Positions 2,418 through 48,929 of a stretch of DNA of 64,000 nucleotides are shown piece by piece; the stretch's first letter is position 1, and the number at the start of each line of letters is the position of its first letter. The stretch is from an uncultured Oscillospiraceae bacterium. Its GTDB lineage: Bacteria; Bacillota; Clostridia; Oscillospirales; Acutalibacteraceae. Location: the NCBI GenBank assembly GCA_900544715.1, contig UQWL01000007.1, forward strand, positions 35,043-99,042. Reading direction: 5' to 3'. The position numbers and the translations under genes were made by a program. A model generated the notes under the pieces. The model was given only the letters and a program-made list of their open reading frames with translations, was not told where the DNA came from and did not search any database.

Positions 2418-3284
2418 GTGAAAAAATCAAAATTGGGCTATTGGTGCTTCCTGTTGCCGTCGCTGCTGGCGTTTCTCATCGTCGAGCTCATTCCGGCGGC
2501 AACAGGGCTTGGATATTCTCTGACGGACTGGAACGGAATATCCGGGGATGTCAATTTCGTCGGCCTCAAGAACTACCTTGAAGTTTTCCGAAATGATCCG
2601 CAATTCTGGCGGGCATTCGGGTTTACGGCGGTCTTTGCCGTATGCGCTGTCATCAGTGTCAACCTGGTGGGCTTTTGCCTGGCACTGCTGGTGACCTCCA
2701 AAATCAAGGGAACAACGCTCATGCGCGGCGTGTTTTTTCTGCCGAACCTGATCGGCGGCATTCTGCTGGGCTTTACCTGGCAGTTTATCTTCGTGCAAGC
2801 ATTTGAGGCACTCGGAAAAGCGACGGGGATTGCATGGCTGCAGGGGTGGCTATCAGATACGGCAACCTCTTTTTTCGGCCTGCTGATCGTGGTGACCTGG
2901 CAGCTTTCCGGCTATATGATGATCATCTATATTGCACAGCTTCAGAACATCCCGGATAACCTTTTAGAGGCGGCGGAGATTGACGGCGCGAATAGCTGGC
3001 AAAAGCTCAGGAGCATCACCCTGCCGCTGGTTGCGCCCGCATTCACCGTGGGGCTTTTTCTCTCGCTATCCAATTGCTTTAAACTTTATGACCAAAACCT
3101 GGCGCTGACCAATGGCGGACCCTTCGACTCCACCGAAATGATCGCACTCAATATCTACAATACAGCGTTTCGATATAATAACCTGGGCCTCGCGCAGGCG
3201 AAGGCGGTTATTTTCCTCATCATCGTGGCGGCAATTGGGCTGACACAGCTCTATTTCAGCAAACGGAAAGAGGTGGAGATGTAA
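2418..3284 (+). CDS. Sugar ABC transporter permease (MalF/UgpA-like).
   Basis: Multi-TM protein. It carries the EAAxxDGA permease signature (LEAAEIDGANSWQKLRSITLP). GTG start follows a GAGGAGGAA RBS. Confidence 0.8.
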   Translation: MKKSKLGYWCFLLPSLLAFLIVELIPAATGLGYSLTDWNGISGDVNFVGLKNYLEVFRNDPQFWRAFGFTAVFAVCAVISVNLVGFCLALLVTSKIKGTTLMRGVFFLPNLIGGILLGFTWQFIFVQAFEALGKATGIAWLQGWLSDTATSFFGLLIVVTWQLSGYMMIIYIAQLQNIPDNLLEAAEIDGANSWQKLRSITLPLVAPAFTVGLFLSLSNCFKLYDQNLALTNGGPFDSTEMIALNIYNTAFRYNNLGLAQAKAVIFLIIVAAIGLTQLYFSKRKEVEM

Positions 3285-4114
3285 TGACGGCAAAAAAAAT
3301 CGGCCGGGGGCTTCTCACGGCCCTGGGGCTTGTGCTATCGGCTTTTTTTATCTCCCCGATCCTGATTTTGATCGTCAACTCCTTCAAATCCCTGAAGGAT
3401 ATTTATCTCAATGTGCTCGCCCTGCCGAACCGAGAGACCTTCACGGCGGAAAATTACCCACAGGCCTATGAAAAGCTGGATTTTTTCACTTCGTTCGGCA
3501 ATTCACTTGCTATTACGGTGAGCGCAATCGTGCTGCTCCTGATTTTTTGCTCCATGGCGGCGTGGGTGCTTGCGCGGTATAAAACGAAGATGAGCTCGTT
3601 TATTTTCATGCTCTATGCGGCCGCAACGCTGATTCCTTTTCAATGCGTCATGCTGCCGTTGATCCGTTTTATGGATGGGCTGAATCTGATGAACCGCCCC
3701 GGTTTGGTTTTCATGTATCTGGGTTTTGGATCGAGCCTTTCCATCATCCTGCTGCACGGTTTTATCAAAAATGTGCCGGTGGAGCTGGAGGAAGCGGCGC
3801 GCATCGACGGCTGCAATATGGTACAGACCTTTTTTCGAATCGTTTTTCCGCTGCTGAAAACGATTCTTATCACCGTTGCGATTCTCAACGCGATGTGGAT
3901 CTGGAACGATTTTCTTCTGCCTCAGCTCGTCATCAATAAGCCGGGCTGGCAGACGCTGCCGCTGAAAACATTTTTGTTCTTCGGCCAGTTTTCCAAGCGG
4001 TGGGATCTCGCCACGGCGGGGCTGCTCATGTGCATGGCGCCGATCGTACTATTTTATCTTTTCTGCCAAAAATATATTATCAAAGGCGTGACCGAAGGCG
4101 CGGTCAAGGGTTGA
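3284..4114 (+). CDS. Sugar ABC transporter permease (MalG/UgpE-like).
   Basis: ATG overlaps the upstream stop (ATGTAATG). Six-TM protein with the EAARIDGCN signature. Confidence 0.8.
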   Translation: MTAKKIGRGLLTALGLVLSAFFISPILILIVNSFKSLKDIYLNVLALPNRETFTAENYPQAYEKLDFFTSFGNSLAITVSAIVLLLIFCSMAAWVLARYKTKMSSFIFMLYAAATLIPFQCVMLPLIRFMDGLNLMNRPGLVFMYLGFGSSLSIILLHGFIKNVPVELEEAARIDGCNMVQTFFRIVFPLLKTILITVAILNAMWIWNDFLLPQLVINKPGWQTLPLKTFLFFGQFSKRWDLATAGLLMCMAPIVLFYLFCQKYIIKGVTEGAVKG

Positions 4115-4129: not shown

Positions 4130-4813
4130 TTGAATCTATATCATTTGCTTTACGAAAGCCCCGCACAGCGGCCTGCCCGGCACGAGCCCCGCACAGCGGC
4201 CGGTCGGTTCCTGCAGGTTGTCTGGCGGGAAGGCTTGACGCTGATGCAACTCAACCTACTTTTTCTGTGCGCATGCCTGCCGGTGCTGACCATAGGCCCG
4301 GCGCTGGGGGCGCTGGCCGCGGTGACGGGAAAGCTCGTGCGGGATGAGCCGGTTTTGCTCTGGCGGGATTATTGGGGCGCCTTCCGCAGAACGTTCCGGC
4401 CCTGCTTTTGGTCGGGGCTGATTCTGGGGGGCTGCGGCGCCGGATTGGGCGCGGCTGCGACCGCGGCGATTCTCTTTTTGCCGGAAAGCGCCTGGCAGTA
4501 TGCCCTGGTGTGCGGGGCGTGCGCACTGTGGCTGATCCTGTGCGGCGCGGCAGTCTACCTCTTTCCGCTTCAGGGGGAGGGGAAAGGCGCGGCCTGGCGC
4601 AGGGCGTGGCTGCTTTCGCTTCGTTTTCCGCAGCGTGCCCTGCCGTGTGCGCTGGGCGTTACAGCCGCACTGTTGGCGGGGATTCTTTTGGCACCGTATT
4701 CTGTGCCGGTGGTCTTGCTGTTTCTCTGTGCCGGGGCGGCCCTCGCGGTGCGCTGCGTGCTGGAGAAGGATTTGCAGAGGGCCGAAAAGGCAAAATTCCC
4801 TTCTTTTGATTGA
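4130..4813 (+). CDS. YesL/DUF624 family membrane protein.
   Basis: The N-terminus (FLQVVWREGLTLMQLNLLFLCACLPVLTIGPALGALAAV) is typical of DUF624 proteins, which sit downstream of Firmicute sugar ABC permeases. Confidence 0.65.
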   Translation: MNLYHLLYESPAQRPARHEPRTAAGRFLQVVWREGLTLMQLNLLFLCACLPVLTIGPALGALAAVTGKLVRDEPVLLWRDYWGAFRRTFRPCFWSGLILGGCGAGLGAAATAAILFLPESAWQYALVCGACALWLILCGAAVYLFPLQGEGKGAAWRRAWLLSLRFPQRALPCALGVTAALLAGILLAPYSVPVVLLFLCAGAALAVRCVLEKDLQRAEKAKFPSFD

Positions 4814-4838
4814 CATGCCCCCCTGATTTGTTTATAAT
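4810..4838 (+). promoter_or_regulatory. Near-consensus sigma-A promoter (TTGACA, 17 nt, TATAAT).
   Basis: TTGACA is at 4810-4815 and TATAAT at 4833-4838, with exactly 17 nt between them. Confidence 0.55.
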
Positions 4839-4844
4839 AAATCT

Positions 4845-5032
4845 GGTCAATAGGGGAGTAGTCAGTATCGCGGTGGCAAAGGCTGCGGTGCGGTTAAATC
4901 AACATCGTGGAGTACCCGGCTGCGCGTACTTCTGGTTTAGCATGAAATGACGAGACCTGTGTTTCCGGGAGTTGAGGAACACAGGCCTCGTTTTTTAAAT
5001 AACACTCCAAAAATACAGGGGGAATGTAACAA
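4845..5032 (+). promoter_or_regulatory. About 190-nt structured 5' leader (candidate riboswitch or attenuator) upstream of oadB.
   Basis: It lies between a consensus promoter and the first gene. It contains several local helices (for example GAGUAC-CCGGCUGCGC-GUACUU) and ends in an intrinsic terminator about 40 nt before the ATG. Confidence 0.35.
4951..4996 (+). terminator. Intrinsic terminator hairpin with a U6 tract inside the oadB leader.
   Basis: CGAGACCTGTGTTTCCGGGAGTTGAGGAACACAGGCCTCG followed by TTTTTT. Confidence 0.6.
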
Positions 5033-6163
5033 ATGAGCTTCCTTTGGGAAGGGCTGCTTGCGATTACCTGGCAGCAGATCGTGATGTACATTGTGGGAGG
5101 CGTGCTGATCTATCTTGCTATCTGCAAGGATTTTGAGCCTGCGCTGCTGATGCCCATGGGCTTTGGCGCGATTCTGGTCAACCTGCCGTTCAGCGGCGTG
5201 CTCGATCAGACGATGCAGGGCGTGGGAGAAACGCATGGGATTATCCAGTGGCTGTTCAATGTGGGAATTGAAACGTCGGAGGCGTTGCCAATCCTGCTGT
5301 TCATCGGCATCGGTGCGATGATTGATTTCGGCCCGCTGCTTTCCAACCCGAAAATGTTCCTCTTCGGCGCGGCAGCGCAGTTCGGCATTTTCTTTGCCAT
5401 TGCGGCGGCCACGCTGTTGGGCTTTGACTTAAAGGACGCTGCCTCCATCGGCATCATCGGTGCGGCGGACGGCCCGACCTCCATCCTGGTTTCGCAGGTG
5501 CTTGGCTCCCAATATGTCGGTGCGATCGCTGTGGCAGCGTATTCCTACATGGCGCTGGTGCCCATTATCCAGCCTGTTGTCATCAAGGCGATCACCACAA
5601 AGAAGGAACGCCTCATCCGGATGCCGCACGTCAAGGCGAAAACGATCTCCAAGCGCACGCGCATCCTCTTCCCCATCATGGTGACCCTCATCGCGGGCCT
5701 GGTTGCCCCCATGTCCGTCTCCCTGGTCGGCTTTTTGATGTTTGGCAACCTCCTGCGCGAGTGCGGTGTGCTCAAGCGCCTGTCTGAAACAGCGCAGAAT
5801 GAGTTTGCCAATATCATCACCCTGCTGCTTGGTATCACGATCTCCTTCAGCATGCGCGCGGAGCAGTTCGTCACGCTTAATACGCTGATGATTATCATTC
5901 TTGGCCTGCTTGCCTTTGTGTTCGATACCTTCGGCGGCGTTATGTTTGCAAAAATCCTCAACCTCTTCACGAAGAACAAGGTCAACCCCATGATCGGCGC
6001 GGCGGGCATCTCCGCCTTCCCGATGGCGGCGCGCGTGGTGCAGAAGATGGGCCTCGCAGAGGATAAGGAAAACCACCTGCTCATGGAGGCGGTCGGCGCG
6101 AACGTATCCGGCCAGATCGCATCCGTCGTGGCGGGCGGCGTAATCCTCGGTTTCTTCAAATAA
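5033..6163 (+). CDS. Na+-translocating decarboxylase beta subunit (OadB/GcdB/MmdB family).
   Basis: It aligns along its full length with the OadB family: FEPALLMPMGFG, MIDFGPLLSNPKMFLFGAAAQFGIF, IGIIGAADGPTSI, AIAVAAYSYMALVPIIQP, FGNLLRECGVLKRLSETAQN, NKVNPMIGAAGISAFPMAARV. Confidence 0.85.
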   Translation: MSFLWEGLLAITWQQIVMYIVGGVLIYLAICKDFEPALLMPMGFGAILVNLPFSGVLDQTMQGVGETHGIIQWLFNVGIETSEALPILLFIGIGAMIDFGPLLSNPKMFLFGAAAQFGIFFAIAAATLLGFDLKDAASIGIIGAADGPTSILVSQVLGSQYVGAIAVAAYSYMALVPIIQPVVIKAITTKKERLIRMPHVKAKTISKRTRILFPIMVTLIAGLVAPMSVSLVGFLMFGNLLRECGVLKRLSETAQNEFANIITLLLGITISFSMRAEQFVTLNTLMIIILGLLAFVFDTFGGVMFAKILNLFTKNKVNPMIGAAGISAFPMAARVVQKMGLAEDKENHLLMEAVGANVSGQIASVVAGGVILGFFK

Positions 6164-6178: not shown

Positions 6179-6415
6179 ATGACAATGGCTGAACTGATGC
6201 TTTTATCGATCCCGTGGGCGGATCGGATGCATAATTTTATGACCTCGCTCGGCTTTATGGGCAAAGGGATGGGCGGTATTCTGGCTGTCATCCTGCTGAT
6301 TACCCTCCTTGTGGCTCTGATTATGAAAGTGGAGCCGATGATCGCCCAAAAGGAGGAGGCGCGCAGGGCAAAGAAGCTGGAAAAGCGTGCGCAGAAGGAA
6401 GCCTCCGGGCAGTAA
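6179..6415 (+). CDS. Small single-TM membrane protein, possibly an OadG-like decarboxylase gamma subunit.
   Basis: 78 aa with one TM helix (ILAVILLITLLVALIM) and a charged C-terminal tail. It sits immediately downstream of oadB behind an AAAGGAG RBS. Confidence 0.4.
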   Translation: MTMAELMLLSIPWADRMHNFMTSLGFMGKGMGGILAVILLITLLVALIMKVEPMIAQKEEARRAKKLEKRAQKEASGQ

Positions 6416-6544
6416 AGAGACCGAACGAAGCAATCATTTATTTGCCCGCCGCCGGAGCAGAAAGAGGCCTCCGGCGGCGGAGTTTTTGCATTTTTACGCT
6501 CTTTTGTGTATACTCGGTAGCAGATATGTGAGAAAGGGTGACGG

Positions 6545-9137: not shown

Positions 9138-10037
9138 ATGATGATGCTGTTTACCATTTTATTCGGGGCGCTGGCGGCATTGTTTGCCGCCCTGTTCTTT
9201 TTGCAGCGGGCCAATCTCCGCCGGGCGCGCAGGGCGCTCGGGCAGATCAATCAGGAGGGCGGCAACCGCCGCCTGCACCTCTCCTCTCCGGATGGGGAGC
9301 TGGAAGCTCTTTTTGAGGAGATCAACCGGGCGCTCGACCGGCGGCAGAGCGAGGAGATCCAGCATATGCTTGCAGAGAAAGAATTGCGCCGTCAGATCGC
9401 CAATATCTCCCACGATCTGCGCACGCCGCTCACCTCGATCATCGGCTACCTACAGCTTGCGCAGGCTGAGGGAACGCCCACGGAGGAACGCGCACATGCG
9501 CTGGAGGTGATCGGCGCACGCACACGCTCTCTGCAAATGCTCATCAGCGGTTTCTACGATCTCTCCCGGCTGGATGCAAATGAATACAGCCTCAGCTTGC
9601 AGCAGGTGGATTTGGGCCGGCCTCTCTGTGCGCAGCTCGCCTCCTTTTACGATGATTTTACCCGTAAAAACCTTGTGATGCACGTGGAGGTGCCTCAGCG
9701 CCTGCCGCTCGTGCTGGCGGATGAGGATGCCGCACAGCGTATTTTTGTAAACCTCCTTCAAAATGTGCTGCGGTATGCAGAGAGCGAGGTGTGGGTTACG
9801 GCGCGCGGGGGCGCCGCCGTGACGACCGTGTTTACCAATGACACCAGCTTGATCTCCCAGGAGGATGTACCGCATGTTTTTGACCGGTTTTACACCGGAG
9901 ATCAAACGCGCAGCGGGCGCAATACGGGGCTTGGCCTTGCAATCGTGAAGCGGCTTGCAGAGCAGATGGGCTGTGAGATCCGGGCCTCTCTGGCTGGAAA
10001 CAGGTTTTCCATCTCTATTTTATGGAAGACGATTTAG
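9138..10037 (+). CDS. Sensor histidine kinase with a short intramembrane-sensing N-terminus.
   Basis: A single N-terminal TM segment, then an H-box (ISHDLRTPLTSIIGY) and HATPase_c motifs (NLLQNVLRYA, GLGLAIVKRLAEQMG). An AGAAGAGG RBS precedes the ATG. Confidence 0.8.
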   Translation: MMMLFTILFGALAALFAALFFLQRANLRRARRALGQINQEGGNRRLHLSSPDGELEALFEEINRALDRRQSEEIQHMLAEKELRRQIANISHDLRTPLTSIIGYLQLAQAEGTPTEERAHALEVIGARTRSLQMLISGFYDLSRLDANEYSLSLQQVDLGRPLCAQLASFYDDFTRKNLVMHVEVPQRLPLVLADEDAAQRIFVNLLQNVLRYAESEVWVTARGGAAVTTVFTNDTSLISQEDVPHVFDRFYTGDQTRSGRNTGLGLAIVKRLAEQMGCEIRASLAGNRFSISILWKTI

Positions 10038-30726: not shown

Positions 30727-31590
30727 TTACTCCAGCTCTTTCAAGGCCTGCTCTTCTTCCTTTGCCACGCGGATCTGCGAATCCTTCACGATCCGTACCT
30801 CCTTGCGATGGATGGAAACCGGGGCGGCGTCCGGCCGCTTATGGAGGCGGATCTTGAGCATCCCGGTCAAAAGGTTGGTATCGATCACAACGCCGCGGCC
30901 CTCCTTGGTATCCACGATCGCACCATTTTTGGGCGTAACGCGCAGGAGGTGCTCATAGGCATTTTGCTCATATTTCAGGCAGCACATCAGCCTGCCGCAG
31001 GTGCCGCTGATCTTGACGGGGTTGAGGGAAATCCCCTGCTCCTTCGCCATTTTGATGGAGACGGATTGAAAATCACCCAAAAAGGTGCTGCAGCAAAATG
31101 GGCGGCCGCAGATGCCCAATCCCCCCAGCAGTTTTGATTCATCGCGCACGCCAATCTGACGGAGCTCAATGCGCGTGCGGAACACGCTTGCGAGATCCTT
31201 GACCAGCTCGCGGAAATCAACGCGCCCATCCGCTGTAAAGTAAAACATGATTTTGCTCCGGTCAAAGGTGTATTCCACTTCGACGAGCTTCATCTCCAGC
31301 TTATGCGCCGCAATTTTTTGCAGGCAGATCTGAAATGCATCTTTTTCCTTGGCGTGGTTTTCCGCCACGATTTTTAAATCCTCGGACGTGGCGGTGCGAA
31401 TGATCATTTTCAGAGGCTTTACGATCTGATCATCCGGCACCTCTCGGTTTTCCATTGCCACCTCGCCGCATTCAATGCCGCGCGCTGTTTCCACAATGAC
31501 AGGATCGCCCTTGGAAAAGGGCTTGTCATCCGGGTCGAAGTAATATACTTTTCCAGCGCCCTTAAAACGGACGCCTACAATTTCGGCCAT
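30727..31590 (-). CDS. yaaT: PSP1 domain protein RicT/YaaT.
   Basis: The sequence aligns along its full length with B. subtilis YaaT (Cys cluster GICGRPFCCSTFL...GTCGRLMCCLKYE). It sits next to holB as in Bacillus. Confidence 0.8.
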   Translation of the reverse strand: MAEIVGVRFKGAGKVYYFDPDDKPFSKGDPVIVETARGIECGEVAMENREVPDDQIVKPLKMIIRTATSEDLKIVAENHAKEKDAFQICLQKIAAHKLEMKLVEVEYTFDRSKIMFYFTADGRVDFRELVKDLASVFRTRIELRQIGVRDESKLLGGLGICGRPFCCSTFLGDFQSVSIKMAKEQGISLNPVKISGTCGRLMCCLKYEQNAYEHLLRVTPKNGAIVDTKEGRGVVIDTNLLTGMLKIRLHKRPDAAPVSIHRKEVRIVKDSQIRVAKEEEQALKELE

Positions 31591-48015: not shown

Positions 48016-48873
48016 TCAATCCAACTTGTTGCGCTCCTGGACGAGCTTCATGGAGATATCGAAGGCCTTGACGGAGTGCGTCAACGCGCCGATGGAAATG
48101 ATATCCACGCCGGTTTCTGCAACGGGACGCAGCGTTTCGAGCGTGATGCCGCCGGAGGCCTCGAGCAAGGCTTTTCCATCCGCCATCTGCACGGCCTCGC
48201 GCATCCGTTCAAGCGGCATATTGTCCAGCATAATGATCTCCGCACCCGCGCGCAGGGCTTCGGCCACCTCATCGAGATTGCGGGTTTCCACTTCGATTTT
48301 TACCATATGGCCGAGCTTCCCACGCAACAGGGTGATCGCGTTCGTGATGCCGCCGGCCGCATCAATGTGGTTATCCTTGAGCATCGCGCCGTCAGAGAGG
48401 TTGTAGCGGTGGTTTTTGCCGCCGCCGCAGACGACTGCATATTTTTGCAGGGAGCGAAGACCAGGCAGTGTTTTGCGGGTGTCGGTAATCGATGCGCGCG
48501 TGCCCTCTACAAGCCTCACGGCCTGCGCTGTGGCGGTGGCGATGCCGGACATGTGCTGGATGAGGTTGAGCGCGGTGCGCTCGCCCTTGAGCAGCATGGC
48601 AGTGCTGCCGCTGAGCTCTGCGATGATATCGCCCTTTTGGAGTGCGTCGCCATCCGCATGGAAGCACTGGGTGCGGAAGGATGGATCGAGCAGCTCAAAC
48701 ACGCGCAATGCGACCGGCAGGCCGCAGAGAACACCGTCCGCCTTGGCAAGGAAGCGGGCCTTGCCCGCCTGATCCGGCGGAATCAGATAGTCCGCCGAGG
48801 TGTCAATATAATTAATATCTTCACGGATCGCCTGGCGGATCAGGTCGTCGATATAAAACTGAGGGAGCATCAT
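48016..48873 (-). CDS. nadC: Nicotinate-nucleotide pyrophosphorylase (quinolinate phosphoribosyltransferase).
   Basis: QPRTase motifs (TRKTLPGLR, LDNM) and synteny with nadB and nadA. Confidence 0.85.
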   Translation of the reverse strand: MMLPQFYIDDLIRQAIREDINYIDTSADYLIPPDQAGKARFLAKADGVLCGLPVALRVFELLDPSFRTQCFHADGDALQKGDIIAELSGSTAMLLKGERTALNLIQHMSGIATATAQAVRLVEGTRASITDTRKTLPGLRSLQKYAVVCGGGKNHRYNLSDGAMLKDNHIDAAGGITNAITLLRGKLGHMVKIEVETRNLDEVAEALRAGAEIIMLDNMPLERMREAVQMADGKALLEASGGITLETLRPVAETGVDIISIGALTHSVKAFDISMKLVQERNKLD

Positions 48874-48929
48874 GAGGAACCCATCCTTTCTGTCACACAA
48901 AACAATCGGTCTGAACTAATTCCCGTTTT

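Follow-up and report, generated by a model that had tools for sequence, protein, structure and literature searches.

A probable P4-less riboswitch of the yybP-ykoY (Mn2+-sensing) class in front of a Na+-pumping decarboxylase subunit gene of a gut bacterium

What switches on oadB, the gene of a Na+-pumping membrane subunit, in an Oscillospirales/Ruminococcaceae gut bacterium, and which signal does its leader RNA sense? We analyzed a 64 kb stretch of DNA from this organism (the window), in which an earlier note had recognized the layout of an attenuation riboswitch, with promoter, structured leader, terminator and gene. That layout was correctly read, and the aptamer within it is conserved. Judged from its sequence, the leader is likely to be a riboswitch of the yybP-ykoY (Mn2+-sensing) class that turns transcription on, folded as a three-way junction of P1.1/P1.2, P2 and P3.1/P3.2 that lacks helix P4. 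That Mn2+ is the ligand, that it acts in the ON direction, and why a Na+-pump module should belong to a Mn2+ regulon are matters of inference.

Promoter, leader and regulated genes

The promoter, the terminator and the genes downstream are arranged as follows.

4810-4838, + strand: sigma-70-type promoter, TTGACA (4810-4815), 17-nt spacer, TATAAT (4833-4838); consensus match 12/12
4951-4996, + strand: intrinsic terminator from folding, stem 4951-4966 / 4976-4990, loop 4967-4975, U6 at 4991-4996
5033-6163, + strand: oadB, beta subunit of a Na+-translocating biotin-dependent decarboxylase (Pfam OAD_beta), 376 aa, the shorter beta-subunit length
6179-6415, + strand: small ORF (78 aa) starting 16 nt after the oadB stop and preceded by a Shine-Dalgarno sequence, GGAAAGGAGA
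6469-6482, + strand: terminator-like site with T-run, 3' of the small ORF

The promoter reported earlier is borne out at all 12 positions and is the sole perfect TTGACA-17-TATAAT in the 64 kb window, where matches with at most one mismatch number 3 against 0.09 expected from shuffles. Related loci carry TTGACA...TAtAAT-like boxes 10-20 nt 5' of the riboswitch motif. The position of the -10 box suggests a transcription start near 4845, which would give a leader of ~188 nt up to the ATG at 5033, close to the ~190 nt claimed in the earlier note. This leader is predicted to fold more stably than its shuffles (z = -3.6). The strong terminator with U6 that had been placed ~40 nt before oadB also holds: C4951-C4966 pairs with G4976-G4990, interrupted by a single A.C mismatch and a single bulge, the hairpin folded alone reaches -24.5 kcal/mol (z = -5.0), and 36 nt separate the end of the T-run (4996) from the oadB ATG (5033).

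The oadB product matches Pfam OAD_beta (E = 9.7e-153, 508.7 bits), NCBIfam TIGR01109 (427.9 bits) and the Salmonella OadB chain 6IVA_A (E = 1.7e-100). In the alignment to 6IVA_A it keeps all six of Glu40, Asp203, Arg304, Asn311, Ser382 and Asn412 (Salmonella OadB numbering), residues that Na+ binding and carboxybiotin decarboxylation require (PMC7274780). The gene had been called an orphan, which is not strictly so, as the 78-aa ORF that follows is probably an OadG-like membrane anchor subunit, judging from a transmembrane helix with the motif SLGFMGKGMGGILAVILL and from its only Pfam match, a weak one to OAD_gamma (E = 0.023; 15.8 bits, the curated cut-off being 27). Among solved structures this ORF had no match, and an equivalent small ORF lies 3' of oadB in 60 of 79 related loci. 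As for decarboxylase partner subunits, a biotin-attachment regular expression run on the ORFs of the window returned only two incidental matches (30727-31590 and 48016-48900). Ten larger downstream neighbors in related loci are unrelated housekeeping genes, for example those for ProRS, MurJ, PEPCK and RF3.

The aptamer and its place in the yybP-ykoY class

Conservation of the leader among oadB orthologues, with covariation, was found as the earlier note had proposed to check. The leader lies directly 5' of oadB in ~38 loci detected with nhmmer, and anchor parsing places the motif before oadB in 51 of the 81 closest oadB sequences (80 loci and the window). Carriers of the motif include the cultivable relatives Intestinibacillus massiliensis (L018), Marasmitruncus massiliensis (L038), Agathobaculum ammoniilyticum (L037) and Mobilisporobacter senegalensis (L025). 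A model of the motif (R1) has 46 matches of 43-91 bits; the window aptamer scores 71 bits (E = 1.6e-15), and a search of the 64 kb window with R1 revealed no second copy. RNAalifold on a plain MAFFT alignment recovered P1.1, P1.2, P2, P3.1 and P3.2, with compensatory changes in 13 of 26 pairs. In the two model-fitted alignments 95.8% and 94.2% of the cells are paired, and double changes rise to 18 and 20 of the 26 pairs, counts that the fitting inflates somewhat. None of 500 shuffles reached these values, and slid-partner controls were only 30-47% paired. When 4853-4958 is folded alone, the minimum-energy structure consists of the consensus helices. Two other leader types precede oadB orthologues, and these gave nothing meaningful in Rfam in E-value mode. 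The parts of the predicted aptamer are listed here.

4853-4958, + strand: probable aptamer, P4-less three-way-junction variant of the yybP-ykoY (Mn2+) riboswitch (model R1, folding, covariation)
4853-4861, + strand: L1 5' strand and P1.1 5' strand, GGGGAGUAG, invariant in 24/24 seed sequences and identical to the RF00080 consensus GGGAGUAG
4861-4864, + strand: P1.2 5' strand GUCA, pairing with UGAC 4948-4951; compensatory changes across loci
4865-4891, + strand: P2 hairpin, variable in sequence and length; compensatory changes in 4/5 modeled pairs
4893-4941, + strand: P3 arm, with P3.1 (4893-4901 / 4933-4941) and the P3.2 hairpin (4909-4932); covariation
4902-4908, + strand: L3 5' side ACAUCGU, with conserved UCAACAUC at 4899-4906; RF00080 consensus GUCAACAUAC...AUGG
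4942-4947, + strand: single-stranded linker AUGAAA, where canonical members have P4 (alignments)
4948-4958, + strand: P1.2 3' strand UGAC, L1 3' strand GAGA (AGA conserved) and 3' strand CCU of the P1.1 switch helix; invariant A-AGAC

The pairs of P1.1 and L1 are G4854-U4958, G4855-C4957, G4856-C4956 and U4859-A4953. P1.2 changes from GUC/GAC to GCC/GGC, GUU/AAC or ACG/CGU, and covarying pairs make up 7 of 9 in P3.1 and 4 of 4 in P3.2. In the 24-sequence seed alignment L3 CAAC-A is invariant or nearly so and A-AGAC is invariant; G-AGA-CCU occupies 4952-4958. This conserved core of GGGAGUAG, (U)CAACAU-C...UGG and A-AGAC coincides with the RF00080 consensus GGGAGUAG...GUCAACAUAC...AUGG.

The elements of the metal site of the yybP-ykoY family, which the earlier note had named only as one to check, are thus present in L1 and L3. 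The L1 5' strand GGGAGUAG has its two Gs and the A-minor adenosine (GGGGAGUAG, 4853-4861), and A4857 would be the counterpart of the cross-helix A-minor adenosine of solved Mn2+ aptamers. The C-A step of L3 is formed by C4903 and A4904 (in UCAACAUC, 4899-4906), which align with the L. lactis residues C40 and A41; N7 of A41 binds Mn2+ in crystal structures (PMC6649816). C4900-G4934 of P3.1 shows no variation, and this C-G pair may be the A-minor receptor. AGA of the L1 3' strand, followed by the P1.1 3' strand, is found at 4952-4958. The P1.1 switch helix, whose 3' half in yybP-ykoY RNAs pairs either in the aptamer or with the expression platform (PMC12153347), is likewise present, and 4951-4958 is common to P1.2, L1, P1.1 and the terminator 5' arm. 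The four-way junction with its coaxial legs (P1.1/P1.2/P2 and P3.1/P3.2/P4) is absent, AUGAAA at 4942-4947 taking the place of P4.

Missing P4, the window scores far below the RF00080 threshold: no match at the gathering score of 45 anywhere in it, while in E-value mode a local stretch gives 8.6 bits. L049, a copy of the motif linked to mntP, reaches 22.7-25.2 bits (E = 1.8e-5). The one locus that passes among 20 metagenome loci tested (L109, 49.8 bits) has a short P4 hairpin at the linker position; this bona fide RF00080 match came from the same pattern search of DNA and has an R1 score as well. The Rfam check proposed earlier gave nothing at the gathering score in the whole window and, over 4750-5100 in E-value mode, only noise besides weak SSRC10 and Manganese matches. 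As the loss of P4 depresses the score, a plain cmscan would return "no hit" and wrongly refute a riboswitch.

A yybP-ykoY three-way junction of P1, P2 and P3 has been described upstream of mgtA in S. pneumoniae, where Mn2+ activates read-through (PMC6649816, Martin et al. 2019). Mutagenesis showed that G16, G17 and A18, C49 and A50, and A102-A104 are needed for metal binding in that RNA (PMC6649816). They form GGA in the L1 5' side, CA in L3 and AGA in the L1 3' side, and correspond in the window to GGGGAGUAG, L3 CA and AGA. Both RNAs share the P1-P2-P3 junction, a terminator overlapping the aptamer 3' side and, as proposed for the window, an ON switch by read-through. They differ in the gene controlled (a P-type Mn2+/Ca2+ ATPase there, oadB and the OadG-like ORF here), in the host (Streptococcus versus an Oscillospirales/Ruminococcaceae bacterium) and in P2 and P3.2, whose sequences are unrelated. 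SSRC10 provides the best full-length Rfam alignment to the window, below threshold, and has the consensus layout seen in mgtA; it is presumably the streptococcal mgtA-type riboswitch.

Canonical RF00080 members (L. lactis yoaB, E. coli mntP, X. oryzae) resemble the window RNA in the L1 and L3 metal-site sequences, the invariant P3.1 C-G pair, the P1.1 switch helix set against the expression platform and, for the motif class, a regulon of MntP, TerC, GDT1 and P-type ATPases, but they have a four-way junction with P4 where the window has the 6-nt AUGAAA linker. The E. coli alx riboswitch, also a three-way variant of yybP-ykoY, shows that one junction helix can be dispensed with in this family, although there the missing helix is P2 rather than P4; alx is a pH-responsive switch of translation that has been reported from Enterobacteriales only.

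Switching and competing explanations

The earlier note predicted a competing element over the 5' half of the terminator, and this role falls to the 3' strands of P1.2 and P1.1 (4948-4958), which overlap the terminator 5' arm (4951-4966) so that all except their first three bases also belong to that arm. When aptamer and terminator are folded together, the terminator displaces P1.1 and P1.2. Under strict criteria, 43 of the 51 loci have a terminator 3' of the motif whose stem includes the conserved AGAC; nearly all the others have one under relaxed criteria. Since the P1 3' strand lies inside the terminator 5' arm, a metal-induced ON switch is predicted. Transcription would begin at the consensus promoter (start ~4845). 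Without metal, the hairpin 4951-4990 with U6 would form and transcription would stop 36 nt before oadB. At high Mn2+, L1 (GGGGAGUAG with GAGA) would dock on L3 (UCAACAUC) around bound ions, and Ca2+ or other divalent ions might promote the same docking to some degree, as reported for relatives. Docking would stabilize the short P1.2 and P1.1 helices, and with the 3' strand 4948-4958 then unable to serve as the terminator 5' arm, RNA polymerase would read through into oadB and the OadG-like ORF.

A cation-responsive element had been suggested previously, and this part of the proposal is probably right; the class favored there, a Na+ riboswitch, did not survive. The idea draws on a gene product that pumps Na+ and on Na+-I riboswitches that occasionally precede oxaloacetate decarboxylase genes (PMC9337991). 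Upstream of pycB in Acetivibrio cellulolyticus, a Na+-I (DUF1646) riboswitch with a terminator turns on a Na+-pumping decarboxylase gene, as the window RNA would, with an aptamer unrelated in fold and sequence and with Na+ as its ligand (White et al. 2022, PMC9337991). Rfam matches to DUF1646 or nhaA-I (Na+-II/Li+) are lacking both at the gathering score and, over 4750-5100, at E <= 10. DUF1646 is a two-stem RNA of ~66 nt (PMC9337991) against the three-way junction of ~106 nt found here, and the other targets of the motif are Mn2+/Ca2+ exporters, not Na+ transporters. We regard either Na+ class as scarcely tenable and as in effect refuted at the level of sequence.

It is less far-fetched, yet still improbable, that the oadB copies share the yybP-ykoY-like fold and sense another or an additional signal, such as Ca2+, another divalent ion, alkaline pH or even Na+. 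As the authors of the mgtA study state, metal specificity is not readable from sequence, and their aptamer holds Ca2+ more tightly than it does Mn2+ (PMC6649816). The E. coli alx riboswitch integrates pH, single-base variants of nhaA-I change its specificity from Li+ to Na+, and the regulated product handles Na+. Counting against the main, Mn2+ reading are also the low RF00080 score, the lack of P4 and OadB itself, which is not a known Mn2+ transporter and keeps its essential Na+-binding and decarboxylation residues intact. The oadB copies tend to GGGG...ACCU with L3 CAACA(U/G)C, and the mntP copies to AGGG...ACUU with CAACAUAC. However, L3 with C at position 7 also occurs in P-type-ATPase-linked copies and is therefore not oadB-specific; comparison of the L1/L3 core with mntP- or ATPase-linked copies revealed no oadB-specific difference. 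The known metal-contact residues are all unchanged, one copy (at L079) governs mntP and oadB together, and in vivo mgtA responds to Mn2+ only (PMC6649816).

We also considered a conserved leader that does not itself sense a ligand, either a protein-bound attenuator or a terminator-released sRNA like SSRC10 ("Streptococcus sRNA 10", RF02617). SSRC10 aligns below threshold to motif and terminator (window 18.1 bits, L049 28, L026 35.1), and a terminated transcript of ~150 nt would accumulate in the OFF state. Against this, the SSRC10 consensus itself has GGGAGUAG...CGUCA...GAGACC and a terminator, so that it looks like a P4-less Mn2+ riboswitch catalogued as an sRNA. The nucleotides that never vary are precisely those of the metal site in solved aptamers, and a link to cation exporters that recurs across many lineages is what marks a cis-acting sensor. 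We judge a ligand-free leader to be very improbable.

Several other candidates were set aside. Mg2+ families and the T-box were rejected in the absence of Rfam matches at the gathering score in the window and in E-value mode over 4750-5100. THF-I, considered because the GAGUAG start resembles it, was dropped, as Rfam gave no THF match and the gene context is unfit. For the GAGUA/AGA internal loop, interpretation as a k-turn or loop-E became needless after the match to yybP-ykoY L1.

Targets of the motif and their meaning

A gene-blind pattern scan of metagenomes returned 120 loci, 100 of which were classified by their first downstream ORF. These ORFs encode MntP (47), P-type ATPases (25), OAD_beta (16), GDT1 (5) and TetR (4), with TerC, Na_Ca_ex and carbonic anhydrase found once each, making oadB the third commonest target with 16 of 100 classified instances. 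A position before divalent-cation efflux genes is thus true of the motif class, the window copy itself preceding oadB. Some loci bring the two kinds of target together, in the order riboswitch-mntP-oadB-small ORF-ATPase (L079), as oadB followed by riboswitch-mntP-ATPase (L049), or with oadB adjoining mntP (L056).

Class, fold and mechanism of this RNA have all been described before, and the riboswitch proposed for oadB is therefore no new kind of regulator; the unusual part is its target, a Na+-pumping decarboxylase membrane module. No paper connecting yybP-ykoY with OadB, GcdB or decarboxylases turned up in a literature search, the gene lists of the two founding 2015 papers lying outside its scope. 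The P4-less three-way-junction Mn2+ riboswitch appears to be common in gut Firmicutes. The RF00080 threshold of Rfam 15 misses 19 of the 20 sampled loci and thus mostly misses the P4-less form, so annotations under-report Mn2+ riboswitches.

It is possible, if rather doubtful, that a stand-alone beta-gamma Na+-decarboxylase membrane module belongs to the Mn2+ (divalent-cation) riboswitch regulon of many gut Clostridia. This would imply a functional link between Mn2+ detoxification and the Na+ cycle, of which our searches turned up no description and in which the Na+ pump energizes or compensates Na+-coupled Mn2+/Ca2+ efflux, or the OadB/OadG pair itself moves divalent cations. With such a module under a Mn2+-type sensor in about one sixth of the sampled instances, sometimes in one operon with mntP, the motif would offer a handle on how Na+-cycle anaerobes cope with excess Mn2+ and on the role of stand-alone OadB/OadG pairs.

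The conserved leader of oadB

The oadB gene lies between a sugar ABC-transporter operon, whose last gene is DUF624/MusI, on its 5' side and a two-component system with an ABC transporter on its 3' side. The features are as follows:

4810-4838, TTGACA-17-TATAAT promoter, 12/12 match
4853-4958, aptamer
4951-4966 paired with 4976-4990, then T6 at 4991-4996, intrinsic terminator
5033-6163, + strand, oadB, a clear OAD_beta protein
6179-6415, + strand, 78-aa ORF, 16 nt past the oadB stop, with its own Shine-Dalgarno and a transmembrane helix with GFMGKGMGGILAVILL

The consensus promoter, the strong intrinsic terminator and the oadB identity claimed in the earlier note all hold. No second perfect match to this promoter occurs in the window, and matches with at most one mismatch number three (0.09 expected by chance). 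The terminator, folded alone, reaches -24.5 kcal/mol (z = -5.0) and ends 36 nt before the ATG.

Relatives of oadB were sampled as one genome per species (80 loci, protein identity 74-99%). The window leader was matched by nhmmer in about 38 of the 80 loci, each time immediately 5' of oadB, and reading the upstream regions of 81 sequences (the window and the 80 loci) revealed a motif shared by 51 of them. Read 5' to 3', GGGAGUAG is followed by a strand of 3-4 nt, a hairpin that varies, a strand of the type GUUAAAUC and AACAUC. Next come another variable hairpin, CU, GGUUUAAC, UGAAAU, a strand complementary to the first one, N and AGAC(C/U), in which AGAC is the base of the intrinsic terminator.

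The covariation proposed as a check in the earlier note is present. From 24 copies aligned with MAFFT alone, RNAalifold predicts four helices, with compensatory changes in 13 of 26 pairs. The covariance model built from this alignment (R1) found 46 copies at 43-91 bits. In the model-fitted alignment, 95.8% of cells are paired and 18 of 26 pairs show double changes, values reached by none of 500 shuffles (slid partners gave 30-47% pairing), and 100 metagenome copies, analysed as an independent second set, behave alike; both model-fitted alignments favour the structure somewhat, a bias from which the MAFFT-only result is free.

Class assignment and switching

We consider it likely that the oadB leader is a transcriptional ON riboswitch of the yybP-ykoY (Mn2+-sensing) class, in a three-way-junction form that lacks P4. 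The Rfam scan proposed in the earlier note was empty at gathering score, both for the window and for 20 related loci. However, R1 also matched two sites that do not precede oadB (L049 4326-4406 and L079 2222-2301), both immediately 5' of MntP-type genes, and the L049 copy scores 22.7-25.2 bits (E = 1.8e-5) against RF00080, the manganese model of Rfam. The printed RF00080 consensus, GGGAGUAG...GUCAACAUAC...[hairpin]...AUGG, is the invariant core of the oadB-leader motif. The earlier note was right to propose a candidate riboswitch, but misassigned its ligand and class: neither DUF1646 nor nhaA-I appears among the Rfam matches of the window leader even at E <= 10, and the core is of the RF00080 type.

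The yybP-ykoY aptamers form a four-way junction joining two coaxial legs, and a three-way junction has been described for E. coli alx, which lacks P2 (PMC12153347), and for the S. pneumoniae mgtA riboswitch, with P1, P2 and P3 (PMC6649816). Mutagenesis of the latter, whose read-through is activated by Mn2+, showed that G16, G17 and A18 (L1), C49 and A50 (L3) and A102-A104 (L1) matter (PMC6649816). The window aptamer has equivalents of all of these residues (G4855, G4856, A4857; C4903, A4904; A4953, G4954, A4955). Unlike canonical aptamers, it carries a linker, AUGAAA (4942-4947), at the position of P4, exactly where a short P4 hairpin occurs in L109, a true RF00080 match (49.8 bits).

Full-length, sub-threshold alignments were also obtained to RF02617, "Streptococcus sRNA 10" (SSRC10):

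window 4861-4994, 18 bits
L026 2837-2949, 35 bits
L049 4334-4434, 28 bits

The SSRC10 consensus (GGGAGuag-hairpin-...CGUCa-hairpin-...CUgAAACAGCgaGaCc plus terminator) has a layout like that of the motif, without P4, and carries GGGAGUAG...CGUCA...GAGACC before its terminator. Judged from its consensus, SSRC10 looks like a P4-less Mn2+ riboswitch filed as an sRNA.

Folded alone, 4853-4958 adopts the exact consensus structure, with P1.1 (3 bp), P1.2 (4 bp), P2, P3.1 and P3.2. When the terminator is included (4853-4998), P2 and P3 are kept and P1.1 and P1.2 are replaced by the terminator. An element competing with the 5' half of the terminator, anticipated in the earlier note, is therefore present, since 4951-4958 is common to both folds. 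A hairpin with the conserved AGAC in its stem, followed by a U-run, occurs in 43 of 51 loci, and most others have the same in relaxed form. This layout matches that reported for transcription-controlling Mn2+ riboswitches, in which metal-dependent L1-L3 docking stabilises P1.1 and prevents termination (PMC12153347; PMC6649816). By analogy, docking of L1 on L3 upon metal binding would stabilise P1.1, block the terminator and allow read-through into oadB; we infer Mn2+ as the ligand and ON as the direction.

In the whole-leader fold, ACACUCC (5002-5008) pairs with GGGGAGU at the aptamer 5' end, and by eye an alternative pairing with the Shine-Dalgarno GGGGGA (5019-5024) is conceivable. Among relatives, the 5000-5025 stretch is kept in none but the four closest (L001-L004), and its pairing might add a level of translational control.

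Genes and leaders associated with the motif

A gene-blind scan of metagenomes with a DNA pattern from the motif alone, GGGAGTAG-N12-42-YCAACA-N25-55-AAWYGRCNAGAC, gave at least 120 loci, a partly redundant sample and not a census. Of the loci listed, 105 allowed a call of the first ORF after the motif, and in 100 this ORF could be classified.

Downstream genes (number among the matches listed)
MntP, 47
P-type cation ATPase, 25
OAD_beta, 16
GDT1/UPF0016, 5
TetR (Pfam TetR_N and TetR_C_8), 4 (L112, L113, L139, L169)
TerC, 1
Na_Ca_ex (Na+/Ca2+-exchanger family), 1 (L193, motif 9720-9800, 52.4 bits)
Beta-class carbonic anhydrase, 1 (L152, motif 65-153, weak, 26.5 bits)

This set amounts to the classical regulon of Mn2+ riboswitches, extended by oadB. 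When copies are grouped by downstream gene, the L1 and L3 cores show no oadB-specific difference, and the L3 form CAACA(U/G)C is common to oadB- and ATPase-linked copies. Only one of 20 metagenome loci tested (L109) passes RF00080 at gathering score, so the P4-less form is generally missed by that model.

TetR-family regulators are atypical targets for the Mn2+ class. At L126, tandem P4-less copies (3042-3137 and 3295-3388; R1 61.9 and 42.6 bits) lie 5' of a P-type ATPase; according to a 2022 review of tandem riboswitches, the Mn2+ class is one of those for which no such arrangement has been found.

Other leaders precede some oadB orthologues. In three that are 80-83% identical (L007, ~2885-2965; L009; L010), the Mn2+ motif is replaced, at the same upstream position, by another conserved leader, which reads GGGUAUUUUrG... 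with a hairpin and a terminator after it; Rfam offers no meaningful match to this leader. A third type (L046, ~2880-3000; L060, L064 and L057 at the same position) reads AAUUUCAUAUACUUGUCAUUU...ACGUGCAUAU...GUACGUUUUCGC...AAAUGACCAaUCAUGCUAAGGAGG, and pairing between its 5' UUGUCAUUU and AAAUGAC, immediately before the Shine-Dalgarno, is conceivable. Rfam contains no match to this type, which may act as a separate regulatory RNA of oadB. The L045 leader (~2480-2560) resembles the Mn2+ motif in the 3' half only (CAGUUUAAUUAGAAUGGCAGGACCUGUAUCC plus terminator), without GGGAGUAG, and may be a decayed riboswitch. Three RNAs above the Rfam gathering score lie near oadB in related loci and are unrelated to the Mn2+ motif:

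L022 999-1169, - strand, Clostridiales-1 RNA, 140 bits
L035 2443-2666, - strand, T-box leader, 111 bits
L048 4750-4961, + strand, cobalamin riboswitch, 51 bits

OadB as a target of a Mn2+-type riboswitch

The window OadB aligns to Salmonella OadB (chain 6IVA; E = 1.7e-100) and keeps the six residues essential there (Glu40, Asp203, Arg304, Asn311, Ser382 and Asn412); judging by sequence, it probably functions in carboxybiotin decarboxylation and Na+ translocation and is not a degenerate paralogue. The only Pfam match of the 78-aa ORF is a weak one to OAD_gamma (E = 0.023, below cut-off), and of 79 related loci, 60 have a similar ORF (40-76 aa) after oadB. The gene is thus not strictly the orphan described in the earlier note. 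A search near oadB found no carboxyltransferase or biotin carrier; together, these observations point to a unit of a beta subunit and an anchor subunit. In three loci oadB adjoins mntP, in two of them with a P-type ATPase as well, and at L079 a single riboswitch precedes mntP-oadB.

Neither the RNA class nor its three-way-junction form nor the mechanism of switching is new. Full-text searches that combined the yybP-ykoY/manganese riboswitch with OadB, GcdB or decarboxylase, in literature other than the two founding papers of 2015, turned up no report of the link to oadB. A known riboswitch class here has an unusual target gene. Speculatively, a Mn2+-induced Na+-pump module might be coupled to Na+-dependent divalent-cation efflux, or the module might itself have a transport role. 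Na+-I riboswitches precede some oxaloacetate decarboxylase genes (PMC9337991), and given the Mn2+-type leader here, the cation sensor that controls orthologous pumps appears to differ between lineages.
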